Part shown: one piece after another, positions 22,860-31,102 of the stretch
How positions within the stretch are numbered: the stretch's first letter is position 1
Layout of the letters: the number at the start of each line of letters is the position of its first letter
Assembly: GCA_013044305.1 (NCBI GenBank)
Contig: JABEUT010000247.1
Location: 1-31,102 of the forward strand
DNA: 31,102 nucleotides
Source: Bacteroidia bacterium
GTDB taxonomy: Bacteria; Bacteroidota; Bacteroidia; JABEUT01
Reading direction: 5' to 3'
Translations under genes and position numbers: made by a program
Notes under the pieces: generated by a model
Database searches by the model: none
What the model saw: the letters and a program-made list of their open reading frames with translations, nothing else
What the model was told of the DNA's origin: nothing

Positions 22860-24017
22860 CTACTTTTTTTCCAAAGTCCTTAACATGACCTCGAAGGGTT
22901 TTAGAACTCCTATTACTTTATAATATTTTTTCCAGTATGAGGAAATGTTTGCATATTCCTGATGCTTGTGTGCCGGCTCCTTCATGTAGGATTCCCAAGA
23001 GGCATCGGTAAAACCTAATTTTTTCTTCACATATTCAAAATCTTCAACAAATAATGATTCGTCGACATAGGTTGGGTTGTTCATTTCCTGTAATGCTTGC
23101 TCCCTGCTGATTTGTCCGGAACATATTAATGTTGATAAATGAAACTGGCGTTTATCAATATGAAACTTTTGTGGAAGTATGTACCCCTGATAAAAGCGTG
23201 TGAACACGGATTCGTAATGCTTACCTCCATAATCGCTCCAGTTCAGTTTCTCGGTTATAATTTCCTTGGCTTTTGCTTTGTCGTATTCCATGTAGTTCAG
23301 TAATGCTATCCTGTGAAAACGCTTGGTCAGTTCATAATACGAATACACCCAAGGGGACAAATGCGGAAAGGTTTTCATGGGCATCTTACCAAATTTTGAA
23401 TGAATTGCTTTTATATTGATAATATCCATTTTAGAGTGTACCCAGCTTTTTGGCATATATGTACCTTCAGTAACCAGATTGTGACCGCTTAATATATTAT
23501 GAATATTATATTTTATAGCAATCAAATACATGGATATCATCAGGGCATAATCGTAGGGGAGTTCAATATCCACAACTCCCGCCTTGAAAAATGAAATTTG
23601 TATATCCCTGAATTCATCCCAGTTCAGAACAACGGTATGCAAATCATAATTGGTCTTTTTTATTATGTTCTCGATATTCCTGACCGATGTTTCAGTATTC
23701 CAGCCGTTATCGCAATGAACTAACAGGATGCGCAATCCCTGCTGATATGCCATGTAGGCGAGGTACGTACTGTCAACCCCTCCGCTTACACCCATTATTG
23801 CATCATACTGTTTGTTTTTACCTTCCCGCACCAATTGAGATATAAGGGTATTGAAATTATGTTGGCGTTCAGGTTCCTTCGGAAGTTTTGCCGCCCCATC
23901 ATCATAATTCCTACAATGGTTGCATACACCCTTATCATCCAGCACAAGATCCGGATCGCTCCCACTGTCCATAATGCAACGAACACAACTTAAAATTTCC
24001 TTCCGTTCCATAATCAT
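22860..24017 (-). CDS. N-acetyl sugar amidotransferase (WbuX/WbpG/PseA-type PP-loop ATPase)
   Basis: N-terminal CxxC...CxxC (CVRC...CNHC), PP-loop VSGGVDSTY, DNGWN, GGKHYES.FT.FYQ and LS.LICSGQISREQAL. Confidence 0.9.
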   Translation of the reverse strand: MIMERKEILSCVRCIMDSGSDPDLVLDDKGVCNHCRNYDDGAAKLPKEPERQHNFNTLISQLVREGKNKQYDAIMGVSGGVDSTYLAYMAYQQGLRILLVHCDNGWNTETSVRNIENIIKKTNYDLHTVVLNWDEFRDIQISFFKAGVVDIELPYDYALMISMYLIAIKYNIHNILSGHNLVTEGTYMPKSWVHSKMDIINIKAIHSKFGKMPMKTFPHLSPWVYSYYELTKRFHRIALLNYMEYDKAKAKEIITEKLNWSDYGGKHYESVFTRFYQGYILPQKFHIDKRQFHLSTLICSGQISREQALQEMNNPTYVDESLFVEDFEYVKKKLGFTDASWESYMKEPAHKHQEYANISSYWKKYYKVIGVLKPFEVMLRTLEKK

Positions 24018-24784
24018 ATTCGTTCGTACAACATATTCAGTTCTCCCTGCGATGGATAATTGATAAGAATGGAATCGGTAGATTTGCCCACATACACGAA
24101 CATGCTTCCTGCGGCAACAGCCGAGGCGTGTCCGTTATTTATTGCCTTAAACAGGTCTTCCATTCCTCCGGCTCCCCCGCAGGCTATAACCGGAATTCCT
24201 ACAGATGAGGTAATCTGACTTAAAGTCTTCAAGTCGTATCCGGTTCGCATACCGTCGCGGTTGATGCAGTTTAACAGAATTTCTCCGGCGCCTGCCTCTA
24301 CTGCTGCTTTTGCGGCTGTCAATGGGGTGTGGGGAACTCTTATTTTTCCTCCGTGTGAATAAACTCTTGTGTTGCCTCTCGAATTAATTGTATAGTCAAT
24401 GGATACCACAACACTCTGCCTGCCATATTTTTCCGAAATATTTTTAACCAGGGAGGGCGCTTTATAAAAATGCGTGTTAATGGCTACCTTCTCCACCCCG
24501 AGACTGAAGATTTTTGCCGCCTGTTCTAGGGTTGTAATTCCACCTCCATAGGTCATCGGCATAAAGCATTCGGCAGCTATTTTGCCCAGAAACCGGTAAT
24601 CGGGCTCTCTTTGTTCCTTAGTAGCATCAATGTCAAGCACAATTATTTCATCCACTTTTTTGTCATTGAATATTTTTACCGCATTCACAGGGTCTCCGAG
24701 ATAATTACGCCTTCCGAACCTAATGGTTTTGCATAAACCGGTGCCTGCTAATAGTATGAGCGGAATTAGCCTTGGAATCTTCAT
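24014..24784 (-). CDS. HisF-like cyclase subunit of the glycan amidination trio (WbuZ/AglZ/HisF2-type)
   Basis: RLIP.ILL....L.KT..F....YLGDPVNAVKIFN.K.VDE, YGGGI, GAGEILLN.I.RDG...GYD and A.AAGSMFV. Confidence 0.9.
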   Translation of the reverse strand: MKIPRLIPLILLAGTGLCKTIRFGRRNYLGDPVNAVKIFNDKKVDEIIVLDIDATKEQREPDYRFLGKIAAECFMPMTYGGGITTLEQAAKIFSLGVEKVAINTHFYKAPSLVKNISEKYGRQSVVVSIDYTINSRGNTRVYSHGGKIRVPHTPLTAAKAAVEAGAGEILLNCINRDGMRTGYDLKTLSQITSSVGIPVIACGGAGGMEDLFKAINNGHASAVAAGSMFVYVGKSTDSILINYPSQGELNMLYERI

Positions 24785-26790
24785 AAATGAAGTATAAAGT
24801 TATTTAAAATATTAAGTCCGAAGCTGTGGCTTTTCTCGGGATGGAACTGCACCCCCATAATATTTTCGCGGGCGAAGGCGCATGCAAAGGTTATGCCGTA
24901 GGTGGCTGTAGCTATGGAATAGGGTGTATCGTGGCTTATGTAGTAAGAATGCGCAAAATAATACCTGGGGTTATTGCCGGAATTTCTAAACAAAGGATGG
25001 TTTTTTTCAATGTTGATGTCCATCCAGCCCATGTGGGGTACCGGTAATTTGGCGTTGTCATTAAAACTAAATTTTTTCGTTTGGGCGGGAATCCAGCCCA
25101 GCCCGTCAGCATTTCCCTCCTCGCTGTGCAAGGTAATCAGTTGCATGCCAAGGCAGATACCCAGCACGGGCGTTTTTTCTTGCAGCACTTTCCTGTTCAG
25201 AATTTCCGAAAGCCCCGACTCCTTGAGGTTCTGCATGCCCTTTGCAAAAGCGCCAACTCCCGGCAGTATGATTTTGTCTGCCGCATGAATGGCCTCCACC
25301 GCAGAGGTAATTAGGGAGTTGTAGCCGAGTCTGCGGAGCATGTTTTGAATGGATGCAGGGTTTCCCAGCCCATAATCCACAATTACAACGTTCGGTTTTT
25401 TGGCATGCGGTGGTGCAGTTTTGAGCATAACATGTTGCTCGCGGGTGCGGTTTGCCAAGGCATTTCTATTAATGACAAAAGGCGATTCCGGCAGCCCTGT
25501 TTTTTCAAAGTATTTATCAACCGGCAGATTTAAAAACAGCTCAATCTTTGAGAAAAAGTCCGTTTTATCATGGGCACAGATATTTTTGATGCTAGTCAGC
25601 ACTTTCCCCATTCCTTCTTCTTCAAAAGGCATCATGAGGCATTTAAAGCCGTAGTACAAGCGTTCATAAACCACACTCGAAAACATGCTGATACCCAGCA
25701 CTGACTTATCAAAACATGCGGAAGAAAAGACCTCGCCCTCATAAATTGAGAAATCAAGTCCGGAGAAAAAATCATTATAATGCTTCAGCATGGCATCCCT
25801 GTTTTCGGGAGTTTTTTCTCGCGGGTGTGGAAATACCAGCAGCTTTATTCCCGCGTTCCTTTTAAGGTATTCGGCAAGGTAGAGCATTACTGTATTCTCA
25901 TTTTTCTCAAAATTCCATTCATCCAAGTCGCCATGCTCCGAGCGCTGATATGCCGCAGATGAGTAAAATCCGATAACATTCATGCCTGAAGCAGGGTCTA
26001 TAGGTTTATTATAATATTTTGCAGTATGATGAATGTTTTCCGGTCCCCACAACTCAATGTTTTTAACCTGTATGGTATCGCTGTATAATTTAAGTTCCTC
26101 AAGCTGGAAGGTGTCGCAAAGGATGAGGGTATCGCATGCCACAATGATTTTGTTCCAAAACTTAAGAGGAGTGGAAGAACTTATTTTTTTTACGGTGATG
26201 CCGGAGTTTTGCAAGGCGATGGAGGTAATGTTTGAATCTTTCTCATAAATGGAATAGAAATATAAAGTACGCACATGCTGCCTCTTCAATAATTTTTGCA
26301 GATTGACAAGTTCAATGTATTCCCAAAAGATAAGCCCTGTTGAACCCTTATATTTTTCAAAAAGCGACACAGGCAGCAGAAAAATAGCAAGAATGCATTC
26401 AAAAATTACCTGCAGAACCTTGTCCCCAAGCCTGAAATAGCCGAGAAGCCTGTTTTTCCATATACTGCCGGCAGGTTTTTCCTTCAGAAAAAATTGCAAA
26501 TGGCCCAGTCTTTGATTCTCACCCTGTTCAAACCAAGGAGAATCGTAGAAATAAAGACCGCCTCCAGAATAAATATGGCAAGCGTCTTCTGCGCGTATTT
26601 TTTTTGCAAGGATTGCGTGCGCAAATGCCTTGAAGAAAAAGACAAAACTTTTGTTATTGGCGTCTGACAGGCGGTAGCTTAACCCAAACAGTCTGGCAGC
26701 GGCAAGCGAATATTTTCCTTTGCCGTCCTTATCAAAATATCGGCTCCAAAACACCCTTAAAAAGAGCAACAATGTCTTGCTGTAAATCAT
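24781..26790 (-). CDS. Fusion protein: about 440 aa GT-B-like putative nonulosonate transferase plus a C-terminal HisH-like (WbuY-type) glutaminase
   Basis: Single 669 aa ORF. From residue 467 the sequence is HisH-like: VIVDYGLGN, ILPGVGAF, GICLGMQ, PHMGW, YFAHSY and QFHPEKS. The N-terminal part has IGFYSS, VFPHPRE (His322-Pro323) and SMFSSVVYE. Confidence 0.8.
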   Translation of the reverse strand: MIYSKTLLLFLRVFWSRYFDKDGKGKYSLAAARLFGLSYRLSDANNKSFVFFFKAFAHAILAKKIRAEDACHIYSGGGLYFYDSPWFEQGENQRLGHLQFFLKEKPAGSIWKNRLLGYFRLGDKVLQVIFECILAIFLLPVSLFEKYKGSTGLIFWEYIELVNLQKLLKRQHVRTLYFYSIYEKDSNITSIALQNSGITVKKISSSTPLKFWNKIIVACDTLILCDTFQLEELKLYSDTIQVKNIELWGPENIHHTAKYYNKPIDPASGMNVIGFYSSAAYQRSEHGDLDEWNFEKNENTVMLYLAEYLKRNAGIKLLVFPHPREKTPENRDAMLKHYNDFFSGLDFSIYEGEVFSSACFDKSVLGISMFSSVVYERLYYGFKCLMMPFEEEGMGKVLTSIKNICAHDKTDFFSKIELFLNLPVDKYFEKTGLPESPFVINRNALANRTREQHVMLKTAPPHAKKPNVVIVDYGLGNPASIQNMLRRLGYNSLITSAVEAIHAADKIILPGVGAFAKGMQNLKESGLSEILNRKVLQEKTPVLGICLGMQLITLHSEEGNADGLGWIPAQTKKFSFNDNAKLPVPHMGWMDINIEKNHPLFRNSGNNPRYYFAHSYYISHDTPYSIATATYGITFACAFARENIMGVQFHPEKSHSFGLNILNNFILHL

Positions 26791-27893
26791 CTGCTTTGGC
26801 GTACTTTTTTTGCTGAATGACTTTGTGCCCGTAATTTAGCGGCTGACGAATTTTTTTTCACATTTACTTTAACAGGCGTTCCGGCCTTAATATCTGTAGG
26901 CGATTTTGTATTCAGCAGAACCTGATAGTACCGCGGATGCAAGCCCAGGTTCGGGCGTACAACCCCTATGTTGTCTTTGGTGAACTTTTCTCCCATGCGG
27001 ATGTCTTTTGAGGCGTAAATGGAGCGCTTAAAGATTAAGCTTTTCAACTCCGACGGTCCCAGTTTGTACGATACTTTACCCAGCGAAAAGAAAGCGTTGC
27101 CGGTTTCGGTAACAAGGGTTTTCATTTCATCGGGTTCCATGGAAAAGGCGGCATCTACCCCTCCTTTATTCCTGCCGAGGCAAAAATGCTTTTCAATAAG
27201 ACATGCACCCAGAGCAGCCGCCGCCACCGATACGCCTATTCCAAGGGTGTGGTCTGATAAGCCGATAAGGCAACCGAATTTCTTCCGCATATCTGCCATT
27301 GTCTTAAGGTTGGCATGCTTTGGAAGCGACGGGTAGGCGCTTGTGCATTTGAGCAGAATTAAGTTTTTGCAGCCACTGCCGCGCAGTATTGCTACCGATT
27401 CGCGAATGTCTTCAAGGCTTGCAACGCCTGTGGACATGATAACCGGTTTACCGGTAGCCGCCACCCTTTTCAGCAGAGGGTGGTGCGTATTTTCGAACGA
27501 TGCTATTTTGTACACGGGCACATTCAGTTCCTCCAGAAAGTCTACCGCCGTTTCGTCAAACGGGGAGCTGAACCATATTAATCCCTTTGATTTTGCTCTT
27601 TCCGTTATCTTTTTATGCCATTCCCAAGGAGTATAGGCCTGTTTATAGAGCTGGTGCAGGTCTTTACCCAGCCATAGTGAATTCCTGTCGCTGATCGTAT
27701 AAGCCCCTTTCATGGTGATGGTATCTGCCGTATAGGTCTGAATTTTTATCGCATCCGCCCCGGAGCGGGCGGCGGCATCAACAATGGCAAGGGCCTGCTT
27801 AAGGCTGCTGTTGTGGTTGCCCGACATTTCGGCGACAATAAAAGGCTTATGTCCGTCCCCGATAATTTTGTTGCCAATTTTTATCGTGTTCAC
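26787..27893 (-). CDS. pseI: Pseudaminic acid synthase-type nonulosonate synthase with a C-terminal SAF/AFP domain
   Basis: FIVAEMSGNHN, GADAIKIQTYTADT (PseI-clade motif), YTPWEWH, KIASFE, LKCTSAYP, GLSDHTLG, IEKHF and RS.YAS.DI. GTG start overlapping the upstream TGA. Confidence 0.88.
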   Translation of the reverse strand: MNTIKIGNKIIGDGHKPFIVAEMSGNHNSSLKQALAIVDAAARSGADAIKIQTYTADTITMKGAYTISDRNSLWLGKDLHQLYKQAYTPWEWHKKITERAKSKGLIWFSSPFDETAVDFLEELNVPVYKIASFENTHHPLLKRVAATGKPVIMSTGVASLEDIRESVAILRGSGCKNLILLKCTSAYPSLPKHANLKTMADMRKKFGCLIGLSDHTLGIGVSVAAAALGACLIEKHFCLGRNKGGVDAAFSMEPDEMKTLVTETGNAFFSLGKVSYKLGPSELKSLIFKRSIYASKDIRMGEKFTKDNIGVVRPNLGLHPRYYQVLLNTKSPTDIKAGTPVKVNVKKNSSAAKLRAQSHSAKKVRQSR

Positions 27894-28384
27894 CTGTTTG
27901 TGTAGGTTTTGGTAAGTTTAATGCAAATTATATTCCCTTCAATCACCTTTTGTTCATTGCCGAAGCCTGCCTTTCTGAAAATGGAGTATGACCGGGTGTT
28001 CTCCGGTTTTATGTAGGCCGTAAGGTTTTCATTCGGGTTTCGGTTCAGGTAATCATCGGTGGCGAGTTCTATCATTTTTAATCCGAGTGATTTGCCTCTG
28101 TATTTTTCATCTATGGATATTCCTACGGTTGTCTCCATCTTCTTCCTGTCTATGCGTACCTGTCCGACCGGAATGTTATCCTGCTGAATGAACAGGTACA
28201 TCCTGCAGTTTTCCGAAAGGATATTTGAACGGAACCATTTTACATGGTCAATGTATTTTATTTTTGATGAAGTAAATGAATTTTCGCGCACGAGATCTTC
28301 ATTAGCCCAGTGGAAATAGGTGTCCACATCACCGGGTGCGGCAAACCGGAATGATATATGGATTGGATGTTCCTGTGTTGTCAT
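27890..28384 (-). CDS. GNAT N-acetyltransferase, PseH-like
   Basis: W.NE..VRENSF....I.Y.DH.KWF, P.GQVRID, I..KYRGK.LG and N..S...F.KAGF. The start is placed at ATG 28384, 1 nt after the PseG stop. Confidence 0.85.
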   Translation of the reverse strand: MTTQEHPIHISFRFAAPGDVDTYFHWANEDLVRENSFTSSKIKYIDHVKWFRSNILSENCRMYLFIQQDNIPVGQVRIDRKKMETTVGISIDEKYRGKSLGLKMIELATDDYLNRNPNENLTAYIKPENTRSYSIFRKAGFGNEQKVIEGNIICIKLTKTYTNR

Positions 28385-28385
28385 A

Positions 28386-29354
28386 TTACAAAGCCCTAAA
28401 CAGATTAAGAAGCCTTTCAGGCGATTTCCCGTCAATTATTTTGCGCTGATGACTTTGTTTATTCAGGCACCTGTTTATAGCCTGTTTCAGCTCGTCTGCC
28501 TCAAAGTTACCGGCGCTTTCAAATGCGCCCAATGACTTAAAACCTTCAAATATACGTCTTTGGTTTGCAACATACATGCCAGAAATAACTTTGCAGCCGG
28601 CGGCAAGGGCCTCAAACAAACTCCCGCTTGCAGGCACAATACATAACTGCGTTTCGGATAACAGTTGAGCCACTTTTTCTTCAGATACTGCATGATGTAT
28701 TACCACCCTGCTGTCGTTTTTTGCTTCTGCCTTAAGGCTTGTCAGATGGCCGTAAGAGGCTCCGGCAAGTACTCCAATATGTTTGAGAAGCATAAAGGTT
28801 TGTGCAATTTTAAGGGTTTTCAAGGTAAGGTTGAGCGGGTCGCTGCCACCGAACGATATCAGCACCGATGCAGTAACTGCAGGCTCGGGTATGGCACTTG
28901 CTTTTTTCAGGAACGATCTGCGCAGCAAGGCATAAGCGGGTCCGAGTGCAAATTTTGTGTAGGGTTGCGCATTATAATCTGCGTCAGTTATTCCCGGTGC
29001 ATGATTTATGATTAAATCGGCAGCAAACTTTCCCTTTGCCAGATCGTCTATACAAACAAGTTTCCCGCACCTGTCCCTTACAATAAGCTGGTATTCTCCC
29101 GTGAAGTCATAGCCATCGAGCACTGCAATGTCATTCTTGTTCAGCAAAGTAAGAAACTCCTCTTCATCCTTTATCGGTTTAAAGGCAAAGCCGTTCGTTT
29201 TAAATTCCCTACTTAATTCCTCCGGCGCATCCTTACATACAAAGGTTATGGTGACCTCTTTTTCGAGCATTTGTCCCAACGCAATGCACCTTACCAGATG
29301 CCCCAGTCCGATCGATTTTCCTCCATCGGCACGTATGTACAGGTTTTGTTTCAC
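28386..29354 (-). CDS. pseG: UDP-2,4-diacetamido-2,4,6-trideoxyhexose hydrolase (PseG/SpsG type)
   Basis: IRADGG..IGLGHL.RC.AL, VLDGY, IDD, DLIINH, LGP.YALLR, ISFGGSDP and VANQ. GTG start overlapping the upstream TGA. Confidence 0.88.
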   Translation of the reverse strand: MKQNLYIRADGGKSIGLGHLVRCIALGQMLEKEVTITFVCKDAPEELSREFKTNGFAFKPIKDEEEFLTLLNKNDIAVLDGYDFTGEYQLIVRDRCGKLVCIDDLAKGKFAADLIINHAPGITDADYNAQPYTKFALGPAYALLRRSFLKKASAIPEPAVTASVLISFGGSDPLNLTLKTLKIAQTFMLLKHIGVLAGASYGHLTSLKAEAKNDSRVVIHHAVSEEKVAQLLSETQLCIVPASGSLFEALAAGCKVISGMYVANQRRIFEGFKSLGAFESAGNFEADELKQAINRCLNKQSHQRKIIDGKSPERLLNLFRAL

Positions 29355-31102
29355 AGCAATTTTCTGAAAACCGGTTTGGCCGGCCTGCCTGTCAGGTATT
29401 TTTCATATCCTTCTGTCAAAGCCTTTTTATACACTTTCAGTGCCTCGCCGAAAGCCTTGGCAAAGTAATACATATCATTATCCGTGTGCGAGAGGCATGG
29501 CACAAATGCTCCGTAAAACAGCACCCCCCGTTTAATCATTTCCTGCATCATCAGTGTCCTGTAACCCTGCGATACATTGCCGTCTGCATCCTTGAAAACA
29601 AACAGGGGCATCCATTCACAGGGTATTATGGTTATATATCCTTCCATGCCCAAATCGTGCAAAAGGCTTTTGCATATCCCTGTCAGGTTGCGGCATAGTG
29701 TATGATTCTTTTCAATCACCTTTTTCTTCTTGAATACATCAATGGTTGCCAATGCCGCAGCTAAGGCATGGGTTTCGGCGCCATGGGTGGTGGAGATTAA
29801 AAATACTTTCTCTTCGCCTGTCTTTGTTATTCCGCCCAGTTCCATTATTTCTTTTTTACCTGTAAGGGCGCAAAATGAAAAGCCGTTGGCAATTCCTTTT
29901 CCCCAGGTGGCAAGGTCGGGCACAATTCCGTATTTAGCCATGGTTCCGGGTAAATGTGTTTTGAAACCTGTTATCATTTCATCCGCAATAAAAACAGCGC
30001 CGTTCTTCCGCGTCAGTTCAATAGCTTGTTTTAAAAAGTCGGACACCCCGGTTTTGCAGTCGCATCCGTTGCCGCAGATATTTCGTTCGGGTTCGGTAAT
30101 CACGCAGGCTATTTTACCCGGAAATTTTTTGAATAGGGCCTTCAGCGATTCGATATTGCACGACTGAAATGTTACCGAAAGGTTTGCTATTTCATCGGGT
30201 ACCCCTTTGTTACACACAGTTTTGCCAATAAACCAATCGTCGTAACTGTAAAATGGGGAGTCGGACGGAAACGCAATCAGCTTCCTGCCTGTTTTTGCCC
30301 GTGCCAGCTTCACGGCGGCGGTGGTAACGGTGGCGCCGTTCTTGGCAAATTTTACCATATCATGGCCGGGTATGAGCGCCAGGAATTTTTCGGCTGTGGT
30401 TTTCTCAATAACCGAAGGGCGCTGAAAGTTCACCCCCTTTTTTAGTTCGTTGCGAACACTGGCAAGAACTGGCTCGAAGGCATGGCCGAGGCTGACCGAT
30501 GTCAGTCCCATGCTGCAATCAAGAAATTTGTTGCCGTCTATATCCCACACGTATGCTCCCTTGCCATAGGCAATGGCGGCAGGCGAACGCTCCGGATACT
30601 GATCGTCGCCTTTGGAATAGGTGTGGGCTCCGCCCGGTATCAGCCCGTGTATGGTTTTGCGGTACAAGTCCGATTTTGTAAACCGCGTGATACGGCGCAA
30701 TTTTATCTCGTCAATCCTGCTTTTCATATATCCTGAATTTCTTGTTTTACCATTGTTTAATGCTTGGAGGCGGGGATGTTTTAGCAAATAATGGGCATAT
30801 TCCTTCCAGCTTTTGTTCGCGCCAAGATGTTCTATCAGGTTTTTTATCACCGAATAATCTTCCCTGTAATCTACCGTCAGGCGCAGAGCAGAATAGTCTG
30901 TCCTTGCAGTCTCCGGCATGTTTTTTTTAAGCGGGTATTTTTGTTTGATGAAGGGAGTTACATGCTCCTTGTCGGATGCTGATTTTGCATGTTGCCATGC
31001 CTCTTTTAAAGCGCTGTATGAGAAGACCTCCACGTCTGTGCCATCAGGATAGCTTCCATGCAGGTCGGTGGAGTAATATTGCAGTTTATGTTTCACACAA
31101 TA
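29351..31102 (-). CDS. SpsF-like cytidylyltransferase (C-terminal part only) fused to a GSA-aminomutase-like class III PLP aminotransferase; 5' end lies beyond the window
   Basis: The frame is open to the edge (YCVKHKLQY...). SpsF-like YPDGTDVEVF...EHVTPFI...RLTVDY.ED is followed by IPGGAHTYSKG, WD.DGN.FLD, VKFAKNG...TTAAV.LARA, ADEMITGF and the PLP lysine in TWGKGIANG. Confidence 0.85.
   Translation of the reverse strand, partial: YCVKHKLQYYSTDLHGSYPDGTDVEVFSYSALKEAWQHAKSASDKEHVTPFIKQKYPLKKNMPETARTDYSALRLTVDYREDYSVIKNLIEHLGANKSWKEYAHYLLKHPRLQALNNGKTRNSGYMKSRIDEIKLRRITRFTKSDLYRKTIHGLIPGGAHTYSKGDDQYPERSPAAIAYGKGAYVWDIDGNKFLDCSMGLTSVSLGHAFEPVLASVRNELKKGVNFQRPSVIEKTTAEKFLALIPGHDMVKFAKNGATVTTAAVKLARAKTGRKLIAFPSDSPFYSYDDWFIGKTVCNKGVPDEIANLSVTFQSCNIESLKALFKKFPGKIACVITEPERNICGNGCDCKTGVSDFLKQAIELTRKNGAVFIADEMITGFKTHLPGTMAKYGIVPDLATWGKGIANGFSFCALTGKKEIMELGGITKTGEEKVFLISTTHGAETHALAAALATIDVFKKKKVIEKNHTLCRNLTGICKSLLHDLGMEGYITIIPCEWMPLFVFKDADGNVSQGYRTLMMQEMIKRGVLFYGAFVPCLSHTDNDMYYFAKAFGEALKVYKKALTEGYEKYLTGRPAKPVFRKLL

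Follow-up and report, generated by a model that had tools for sequence, protein, structure and literature searches.

What does a class III aminotransferase, of a family that is named in databases after an enzyme of tetrapyrrole synthesis, do in a pseudaminic acid (Pse) locus, where it is joined in one polypeptide to a cytidylyltransferase of the SpsF type? The question is raised by one end of contig JABEUT010000247.1 (C138 in our set) from the draft genome of a Bacteroidia bacterium (G000; 335 contigs, 84.7% complete). The window that was analysed is this entire contig (positions 1-31102; 31,102 bases), and the gene in question is located at 29351..31102 of the minus strand, directly in front of pseG. 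We propose, and give the proposal about an even chance of being right, that this gene encodes the two-domain enzyme of a three-part Pse tailoring cassette, which would make a cytidine monophosphate (CMP)-activated 5,7,8-triamino-3,5,7,8,9-pentadeoxy-nonulosonate.

A Cytidylyltransferase Domain Is Fused to a Class III Aminotransferase

The gene reads as a single open frame of 583 codons that closes at a TGA codon (29351-29353, minus strand) and at its other side runs off the contig end. Its larger part (29354..30688), which continues the reading frame of the cytidylyltransferase part, encodes a PRK06209/NF004856-family aminotransferase of class III (fold type I) that depends on pyridoxal 5′-phosphate (PLP). 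Pfam Aminotran_3 (PF00202) matches residues 175-473 (E 1.4e-35), and NCBIfam NF004856 (PRK06209) matches residues 139-582 with 538.2 bits, above its cut-off of 486. In alignments, the PLP lysine in TWGKGIANG and the aspartate of DE(M)ITGF line up with the corresponding residues of HemL and are invariant in the family. The stop codon of the fusion and the GTG start codon of pseG share the letters GTGA (29351..29354, minus strand) within the junction sequence ...TTGCTGTGAAACAAAAC..., an arrangement of translational coupling.

The cytidylyltransferase part (30689..31102, minus strand) comprises a piece of an SpsF-type domain (COG1861, Pfam CTP_transf_3) and a linker, with the 5′ end cut by the contig end. 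Taken alone, residues 1-138 of the fusion gave no Pfam match. They were aligned with full-length homologues that carry CTP_transf_3 (PF02348) at residues 5-175. Since the alignment, which covers residues ~117-250 of these homologues, is free of gaps, the domain in the window is, as judged from the alignment, the C-terminal half only. The invariant YPDG.D.E.F, EHVT and R.T.D motifs are present in it. Some 115 N-terminal residues lie beyond the contig end, including the nucleotide-binding loop (GITQARIGSSRLPGKVL in homologues); this loop (ARxxSxRLPxK) and the DCPL motif, likewise beyond the contig end in this copy, are found in all full-length homologues aligned. A search of the assembly for the missing piece of the gene revealed no other CTP_transf_3 match. 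Thus, the initial annotation of this DNA, which had described SpsF-type motifs running without a stop into a full class III aminotransferase, a PLP lysine in WGKG and GTGA coupling to pseG, is borne out by the single frame, the two family matches and the alignments with homologues and HemL, and the overlap can be read directly in the sequence.

The gene call of the collection, P0002 (29354-30700, minus strand; 449 amino acids), covers the aminotransferase alone and begins at an internal codon. It omits 134 in-frame upstream codons that align to the SpsF-type domain, and the fusion is therefore hidden.

The Aminotransferase Domain Is Distinct from HemL and PseC

NF004856 is labelled by NCBIfam as an equivalog of glutamate-1-semialdehyde 2,1-aminomutase (HemL), and the nearest solved relatives of the domain are HemL structures (PDB 2e7u, 3l44 and 2gsa; E ~1e-40), with which it has the fold, the PLP lysine and the aspartate in common. 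Unlike HemL, the cassette enzyme has a cytidylyltransferase as fusion partner, and the same genome encodes a true hemL at another site (G000 contig C20:7931-9187; 547.5 bits with the hemL model TIGR00713). With this model, the fusion scores 170.1 bits versus a cut-off of 527.3. The cassette enzyme is 26-28% identical to the real HemL of this and one related genome. An alignment with two HemLs shows that the GGVNSPVRAF motif of HemL (SPVR) is replaced by GGAHTYSKGDDQ (TYSK) in cassette enzymes, that the Glu of the HemL motif YE(V/A)GF / (Y/F)EAGF is lost (YGAF), that nine residues are deleted at the region of the HemL gating loop, and that the C-terminus is extended by ~25 amino acids relative to HemL. 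According to structural work on the aminomutase, the Glu reportedly excludes alpha-keto acids, and the gating loop is said to trap the diamine intermediate. The loss of this Glu and of a portion of the loop would fit an open, roomier active site and ordinary transamination by the cassette enzymes.

A true HemL was rejected on account of the TIGR00713 score, the hemL gene elsewhere in the genome and the changes in the substrate motif, the Glu and the loop. The initial annotation had considered that its idea of a nonulosonate enzyme would fall if the protein acted as the aminomutase only; against this stands the genome's own hemL on C20. The name of NF004856 is probably wrong for the whole family, as judged from members that occur in nonulosonate loci, do not carry the HemL substrate motif and stand beside a real hemL. 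A substitute for PseC was likewise rejected: the Pfam scan of the fusion returned Aminotran_3 only, in agreement with the earlier assignment to class III rather than to the DegT/PseC type, and relatives keep PseC as a separate gene.

An Aldo-Keto Reductase Accompanies the Fusion in Related Loci

Eighty related loci were fetched with 10 kb flanks, open reading frames were called, proteins were clustered, and cluster representatives were annotated. Partner counts refer to the 71 informative loci, defined as those with at least three genes upstream. Across the 80 loci, the conserved order is PseB-PseC-(GNAT)-aldo-keto reductase (AKR)-SpsF/aminotransferase-PseG or double GNAT-NeuB-family synthase. 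In 60 of the 71 informative loci, among them 35 of the 36 with the fused form, the reductase of the cassette, an AKR of ~287 residues (PF00248), is encoded at a distance of at most four genes upstream. A true PseC is present as a separate gene, also in 60 of 71 (473 bits with the PseC model TIGR03588 in a related locus). The cytidylyltransferase and the aminotransferase are encoded by two abutting genes in 35/71 loci and by one fused gene in 36/71; by parsimony on a FastTree tree of the aminotransferase domain, which contains some weak nodes, the fused/split state switched approximately 13 times.

Thirty longer homologues of the partner AKR were found. As many as 27 of these are AKR+CTP_transf_3 fusions of 512-578 residues, one (P0133, 1017 amino acids) is an AKR+CTP_transf_3+Aminotran_3 fusion whose domains follow the order of the genes, and two (P0130 and P0131, 649 amino acids) are AKRs joined to a NeuB synthase with a SAF domain. 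The initial annotation had suggested that the enzyme may aminate an oxidised carbon of the activated nonulosonate or of a substituent, which predicted an oxidoreductase partner upstream, and had proposed a comparison of gene neighbourhoods of homologues. Both the suggestion and the prediction are supported by the comparative sequence evidence: the AKR co-occurs with the homologues and exists in a triple fusion with them, and the homologues sit in nonulosonate loci, so the link to such loci on which the idea depended is there.

The AKR-cytidylyltransferase-aminotransferase trio is constant among the loci, whereas genes for acyl groups differ. A short-chain dehydrogenase/reductase (SDR) is encoded in only 8 of the 80 loci; the constant third part is the aminotransferase. 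Extra N-acyl machinery is found in many loci (an ATP-grasp enzyme, an additional GNAT, or a formyltransferase together with a PIG-L deacetylase; in the window, a FemAB-like protein), with PIG-L-type de-N-acetylases present in 15; it could acylate a third amine or, equally, vary the groups at N5 and N7.

Some loci carry additional genes. In Chitinophagaceae-type loci (L049:3464-5209, L072:5457-6269 and L023:1648-3093), an FkbH-like protein, an SDR and an MBOAT acyltransferase are encoded between pseC and the cassette and may build a glyceroyl-type N-acyl group. In the split-form locus L013 (G031:C1:640000-659900), an SDR rather than an AKR adjoins the aminotransferase. Upstream lies a formyltransferase-like gene, and a DUF4910/DUF2172 aminopeptidase-like protein is encoded downstream. 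Twelve NeuB-family proteins (L085:8679-9656, L058:8643-9623, L073:8634-9614 and nine others) form a deeply divergent clade that scores below the NeuB and PseI cut-offs. Nine of the 12 genes are located between the reductase and the SpsF-type gene of split-type loci, and an ordinary PseI-type synthase is additionally encoded downstream in most, but not all, of the loci with a divergent NeuB.

Role of the Cytidylyltransferase Domain

When scored with the PseF model TIGR03584 (cut-off 205.7), a split-form SpsF-type protein reached 36.3 bits and the domain of the fusion at most 33 bits. PseF above this cut-off was detected in none of four genomes searched, which include G037, a 100% complete genome with the fusion. 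Since G037 has no such PseF, its SpsF-type domain is, on the sequence evidence, the sole candidate for sugar activation there. An SpsF-aldo-keto reductase fusion of Vibrionaceae has likewise been proposed to activate the sugar in place of PseF (PMC7371886). FlmC of Caulobacter is a cytidylyltransferase without similarity to PseF; it belongs to a set of six genes that, expressed together in E. coli, led to Pse-dependent modification of flagellin, a result obtained for the six jointly (PMC7591256). SpsF of Bacillus subtilis and FlmC resemble the cassette in being nonulosonate-pathway cytidylyltransferases unlike PseF and differ from it in standing alone, with neither a reductase nor an aminotransferase partner.

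A Predicted Route to 8-Amino Nonulosonates

The two closest tested systems offer a framework for the cassette. In A. baumannii prophages, EpaA (CTP_transf_3 + Aldo_ket_red, 542 amino acids; GenPept SBS22546.1) and the SDR EpaB convert Pse5Ac7Ac to its 8-epimer, as demonstrated by complementation and nuclear magnetic resonance (Sharar et al. 2025, PMC12053666). Compared by architecture, not sequence, EpaA/EpaB and the cassette both tie CTP_transf_3 to an AKR (fused in EpaA) and add one further enzyme acting on Pse. The third enzyme is an SDR in the former, the outcome being 8-epimerisation, and a class III aminotransferase in the latter; moreover, the cytidylyltransferase is fused to the AKR in EpaA and to the aminotransferase in the window gene, and the domain order is cytidylyltransferase-AKR in EpaA but AKR-cytidylyltransferase in the fusions found here. 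In A. baumannii KL49, the cytidylyltransferase ElaB is proposed to activate the legionaminic acid derivative Leg5,7Ac2; oxidation of the CMP-sugar at C8 is ascribed to the Gfo/Idh/MocA protein ElaA, and reduction of the 8-ketone of this CMP-8-keto intermediate from the opposite face to the SDR ElaC, a scheme based on knock-outs, crystal structures and docking rather than on enzyme assays (PMC13656337). In this system too, a cytidylyltransferase and an oxidase would give a CMP-8-keto nonulosonate on which a second enzyme acts. In contrast to the cassette, ElaABC acts on legionaminic acid, its oxidase is of the Gfo/Idh/MocA type, and its second enzyme is an SDR reductase, with no aminotransferase. 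The pairing of a cytidylyltransferase with an NAD(P)-dependent oxidoreductase that marks EpaAB and ElaABC is thus found among relatives of the window gene, as the AKR counts and fused forms given above indicate, but a second oxidoreductase (SDR) for the 8-ketone is generally not. SDRs also serve in the synthesis of acinetaminic acid, where they are represented by AciB and AciE.

The sequences establish how the domains are arranged, that the PLP site is intact, that the neighbourhood is conserved and fusions of its parts occur, and that the aminotransferase is not HemL. In the route that we propose on this basis, the SpsF-type domain would load the nine-carbon sugar (Pse) onto CMP. The upstream AKR would act as a dehydrogenase that converts a secondary hydroxyl, most likely the C8-OH beside the C9 methyl, to a ketone, and the class III domain would aminate this methyl ketone, with an amino acid as donor. 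An 8-keto-9-deoxy nonulosonate is a methyl ketone, and class III amine transaminases accept such substrates. Since the transaminase occupies the place of the second reductase in the Epa and Ela systems, an 8-amino sugar is the expected product, i.e., the CMP-activated triamino-pentadeoxy-nonulosonate named above, which the extra acyltransferases of the loci could N-acylate. Which reactions take place, at which carbon, and whether activation precedes tailoring are matters of inference in this route. We class the window gene as a cut-off representative of a common variant of known nonulosonate C8-tailoring modules; this copy adds little beyond another occurrence.

Oxidation followed by transamination has parallels among other sugars. 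PDB matches of the aminotransferase domain include the distant C-6′ aminotransferases 7lld and 7lm0 (E ~1e-19), which belong with the NeoB/BtrB type to the class III aminotransferases that aminate oxidised sugar carbons in aminoglycoside pathways. As proposed here, a class III enzyme works in these systems together with a dehydrogenase to change a sugar hydroxyl into an amine; their substrates are pseudo-oligosaccharide 6′-aldehydes, unlike nonulosonates. KdnB and KdnA of Shewanella make 8-amino-Kdo: C8 of a 2-keto-3-deoxy sugar acid is first oxidised and then transaminated. They differ from the cassette in that an iron alcohol dehydrogenase and a DegT-like aminotransferase are used and that C8 of Kdo is a primary alcohol. 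8-Amino-Kdo is cited in PMC3210612.

A sugar of the predicted type exists in the phylum. The O-antigen of Flexibacter (Tenacibaculum) maritimum, a member of Bacteroidota, contains 5,7-diacylamido-8-amino-3,5,7,8,9-pentadeoxy-nonulosonic acid of manno configuration (PMC3210612). Our literature search found no genes assigned to this 8-amino sugar; the papers on the T. maritimum O-antigen do not mention the cassette, nothing on the sugar or the cassette was found in SugarBase, and the paper on Pse of Tannerella forsythia shows no such cassette genes (PMC5378307). The O-antigen locus of Legionella pneumophila serogroups 6 and 12 encodes PseG, this aminotransferase, a cytidylyltransferase, HisFH, a WbuX-like gene and an aryl-alcohol dehydrogenase (PMC3694923).

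Several points weigh against the proposed 8-amination. The assignment of C8 is drawn from an analogy of architecture. We know of no 8-amino sugar reported from L. pneumophila serogroups 6 and 12, and the literature search returned no paper on this cassette. In the genome under study, the reductase, the N-terminus of the fusion, pseB and pseC are not assembled, and a search of the assembly for the missing upstream genes revealed no cassette-type AKR and no PseB above cut-off. The divergent NeuB inside some split-type cassettes hints at a role at the condensation step or ahead of it, which our model leaves unexplained. Finally, a true PseF (284.8 bits, cluster c25) is encoded in nine of 79 loci (e.g., L046:14595-15305). 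Because these nine loci encode PseF too, the SpsF-type domain is not merely a substitute for it, and tailoring may take place on the free sugar or on the CMP-sugar. The nine loci (L046 and eight others) thus encode two nonulosonate-activating enzymes.

These considerations leave room for other explanations. The carbonyl made by the reductase might be aminated elsewhere, at C4 of the nonulosonate or within an N-acyl substituent that bears an aldehyde or ketone (e.g., 3-oxobutanoyl or oxidised glyceroyl). Class III enzymes favour aldehydes and omega or omega-1 ketones, FkbH-like, SDR, MBOAT, ATP-grasp and formyltransferase genes occur in several loci, and Pse has been described with 3-hydroxybutanoyl or glyceroyl groups (PMC5378307; PMC3210612). 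We nevertheless consider such a site unlikely: acyl-group genes vary by locus while the trio is constant, fusions to the cytidylyltransferase and to NeuB bind the trio to the sugar core, and the tested relatives work at C8. One could also suppose that the SpsF-type domain only replaces PseF and that the reductase and the aminotransferase make a separate small molecule, such as an amino-alcohol or an acyl donor. The repeated fusion of the three activities, in one case all within one protein, argues for consecutive steps on one substrate instead, and nine loci retain PseF; this supposition therefore appears rather improbable to us, even with PseF absent from most loci and from the complete G037 and with the precedent of FlmC, the sixth gene of a six-gene reconstitution in E. 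coli (PMC7591256).

If the class III domain were a PLP-dependent epimerase or racemase that acts on a free amino group (e.g., at C7) and gives a stereoisomer, the constant oxidoreductase partner would be needless. Isoleucine 2-epimerase and a GenB2-type 6′-epimerase, which have the same fold, are among the PDB matches, and the PIG-L-type de-N-acetylases of 15 loci might free the amine. However, a deacetylase is absent from most loci, this window included, and the closest sequence relatives are aminomutases and transaminases, which makes this possibility very improbable. As for a true glutamate-1-semialdehyde 2,1-aminomutase for tetrapyrrole synthesis, the NF004856 equivalog label and the cut-off that was passed would speak for it; it is hardly conceivable in view of 170 bits versus 527 with TIGR00713, the real hemL on C20 and the altered substrate motif, Glu and gating loop, in a gene that is fused to a cytidylyltransferase and always found in nonulosonate loci.

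It is possible, and in our estimate somewhat short of an even chance, that the cassette supplies the so far missing genes for 8-amino nonulosonic acids (5,7,8-triamino sugars). Surface decoration with 8-amino nonulosonates would then extend to about one-tenth of Bacteroidia genomes and to members of several other phyla, and the extra amine would permit amide-linked polymers, as in T. maritimum. To our knowledge, 8-amino nonulosonic acids have so far been known from a single fish pathogen only. Nonulosonic acids shape the recognition of bacterial surfaces by phages, immune systems and lectins, and their tailoring, as known so far, consists of N-acyl changes and of epimerisation at C8 or C7. A gene set for a third amine would explain an orphan sugar structure, would correct the database name of a large family and would provide glycobiologists with an enzyme pair to make 8-amino analogues of Pse. 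The window itself makes a smaller point, as a truncated copy of a common cassette whose partners are unassembled.

Distribution of the Fusion

A search of 5.8 billion proteins retrieved more than 100 homologues of 695-705 amino acids (a lower bound) that are 60-66% identical over the whole query (E < 1e-237); all of them carry both PF02348 and PF00202, and many come from Flavobacterium. Cultured carriers of the cassette include Flavobacterium cauense R2A-7, F. suncheonense DSM 17707, F. saliperosum, Rhodocytophaga aerolata KACC 12507 and Danxiaibacter flavus. Given more than 100 homologues at this E-value, the fusion is beyond chance. Several large clusters of the same architecture are present in the ESM Atlas, from Pseudomonadota, Thermodesulfobacteriota and others. 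One further ESM Atlas cluster, which we regard as a lead only, consists of proteins that resemble glutamate-1-semialdehyde aminomutase and are fused to a GNAT.

A protein that scores above the NF004856 cut-off is encoded by 34 of 301 genomes sampled from the same class (~1 in 9), but by none of eight sampled from the same genus. Six genomes of a wider same-genus sample (n = 17) carry only a stand-alone relative with 36-38% identity. This patchy spread of the cassette is as expected for surface-glycan loci. The stand-alone relative (~452 amino acids; loci L006-L011 in genomes G004, G005, G006, G011, G014 and G017, where the fusion is absent) reached 365-374 bits upon re-scoring with NF004856 (G006 and G011), which is under the cut-off. 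Like the cassette enzyme, it has a shortened gating-loop region and no longer carries the HemL Glu, and it reads TLAK in place of the TYSK of the cassette.

Other Genes of the Window and of the Assembly

Two AKR fragments, C-terminal and N-terminal, are encoded at contig ends elsewhere in the assembly (G000 contigs C309:5380-5886 and C195:4553-5029, respectively) and may be halves of one gene broken by assembly. They were rejected as the cassette reductase, to which they show no match.

In the window, the minus strand continues beyond the fusion with pseG (28386..29354), which codes for the UDP-sugar hydrolase and scores 187.3 bits with TIGR03590 (cut-off 153.6). It is followed by the gene of a PseH-like GNAT N-acyltransferase (27890..28435; PF13302, E 1.8e-10) that scores under the PseH cut-off (TIGR03585, 35.7 bits versus 93.1) and by pseI (26787..27893), the pseudaminic acid synthase gene (TIGR03586, 466.8 bits, cut-off 340), which clusters with the PseI-type clade among the neighbouring NeuB genes. 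Next on this strand is an acetamidino (amidotransferase) trio (22860..26790), composed of a domain of unknown function fused to HisH (24781-26790; TIGR01855 HisH at residues 468-666), AglZ/HisF2 (24014-24784; NF038364, 324.9 bits, cut-off 310) and WbuX (22860-24017; TIGR03573, 255.8 bits, cut-off 203.2). In the first of the three, the HisH glutaminase sits behind an unannotated domain of ~460 residues. A GT4 glycosyltransferase, a FemAB-like protein and wecB are encoded further downstream on the same strand.

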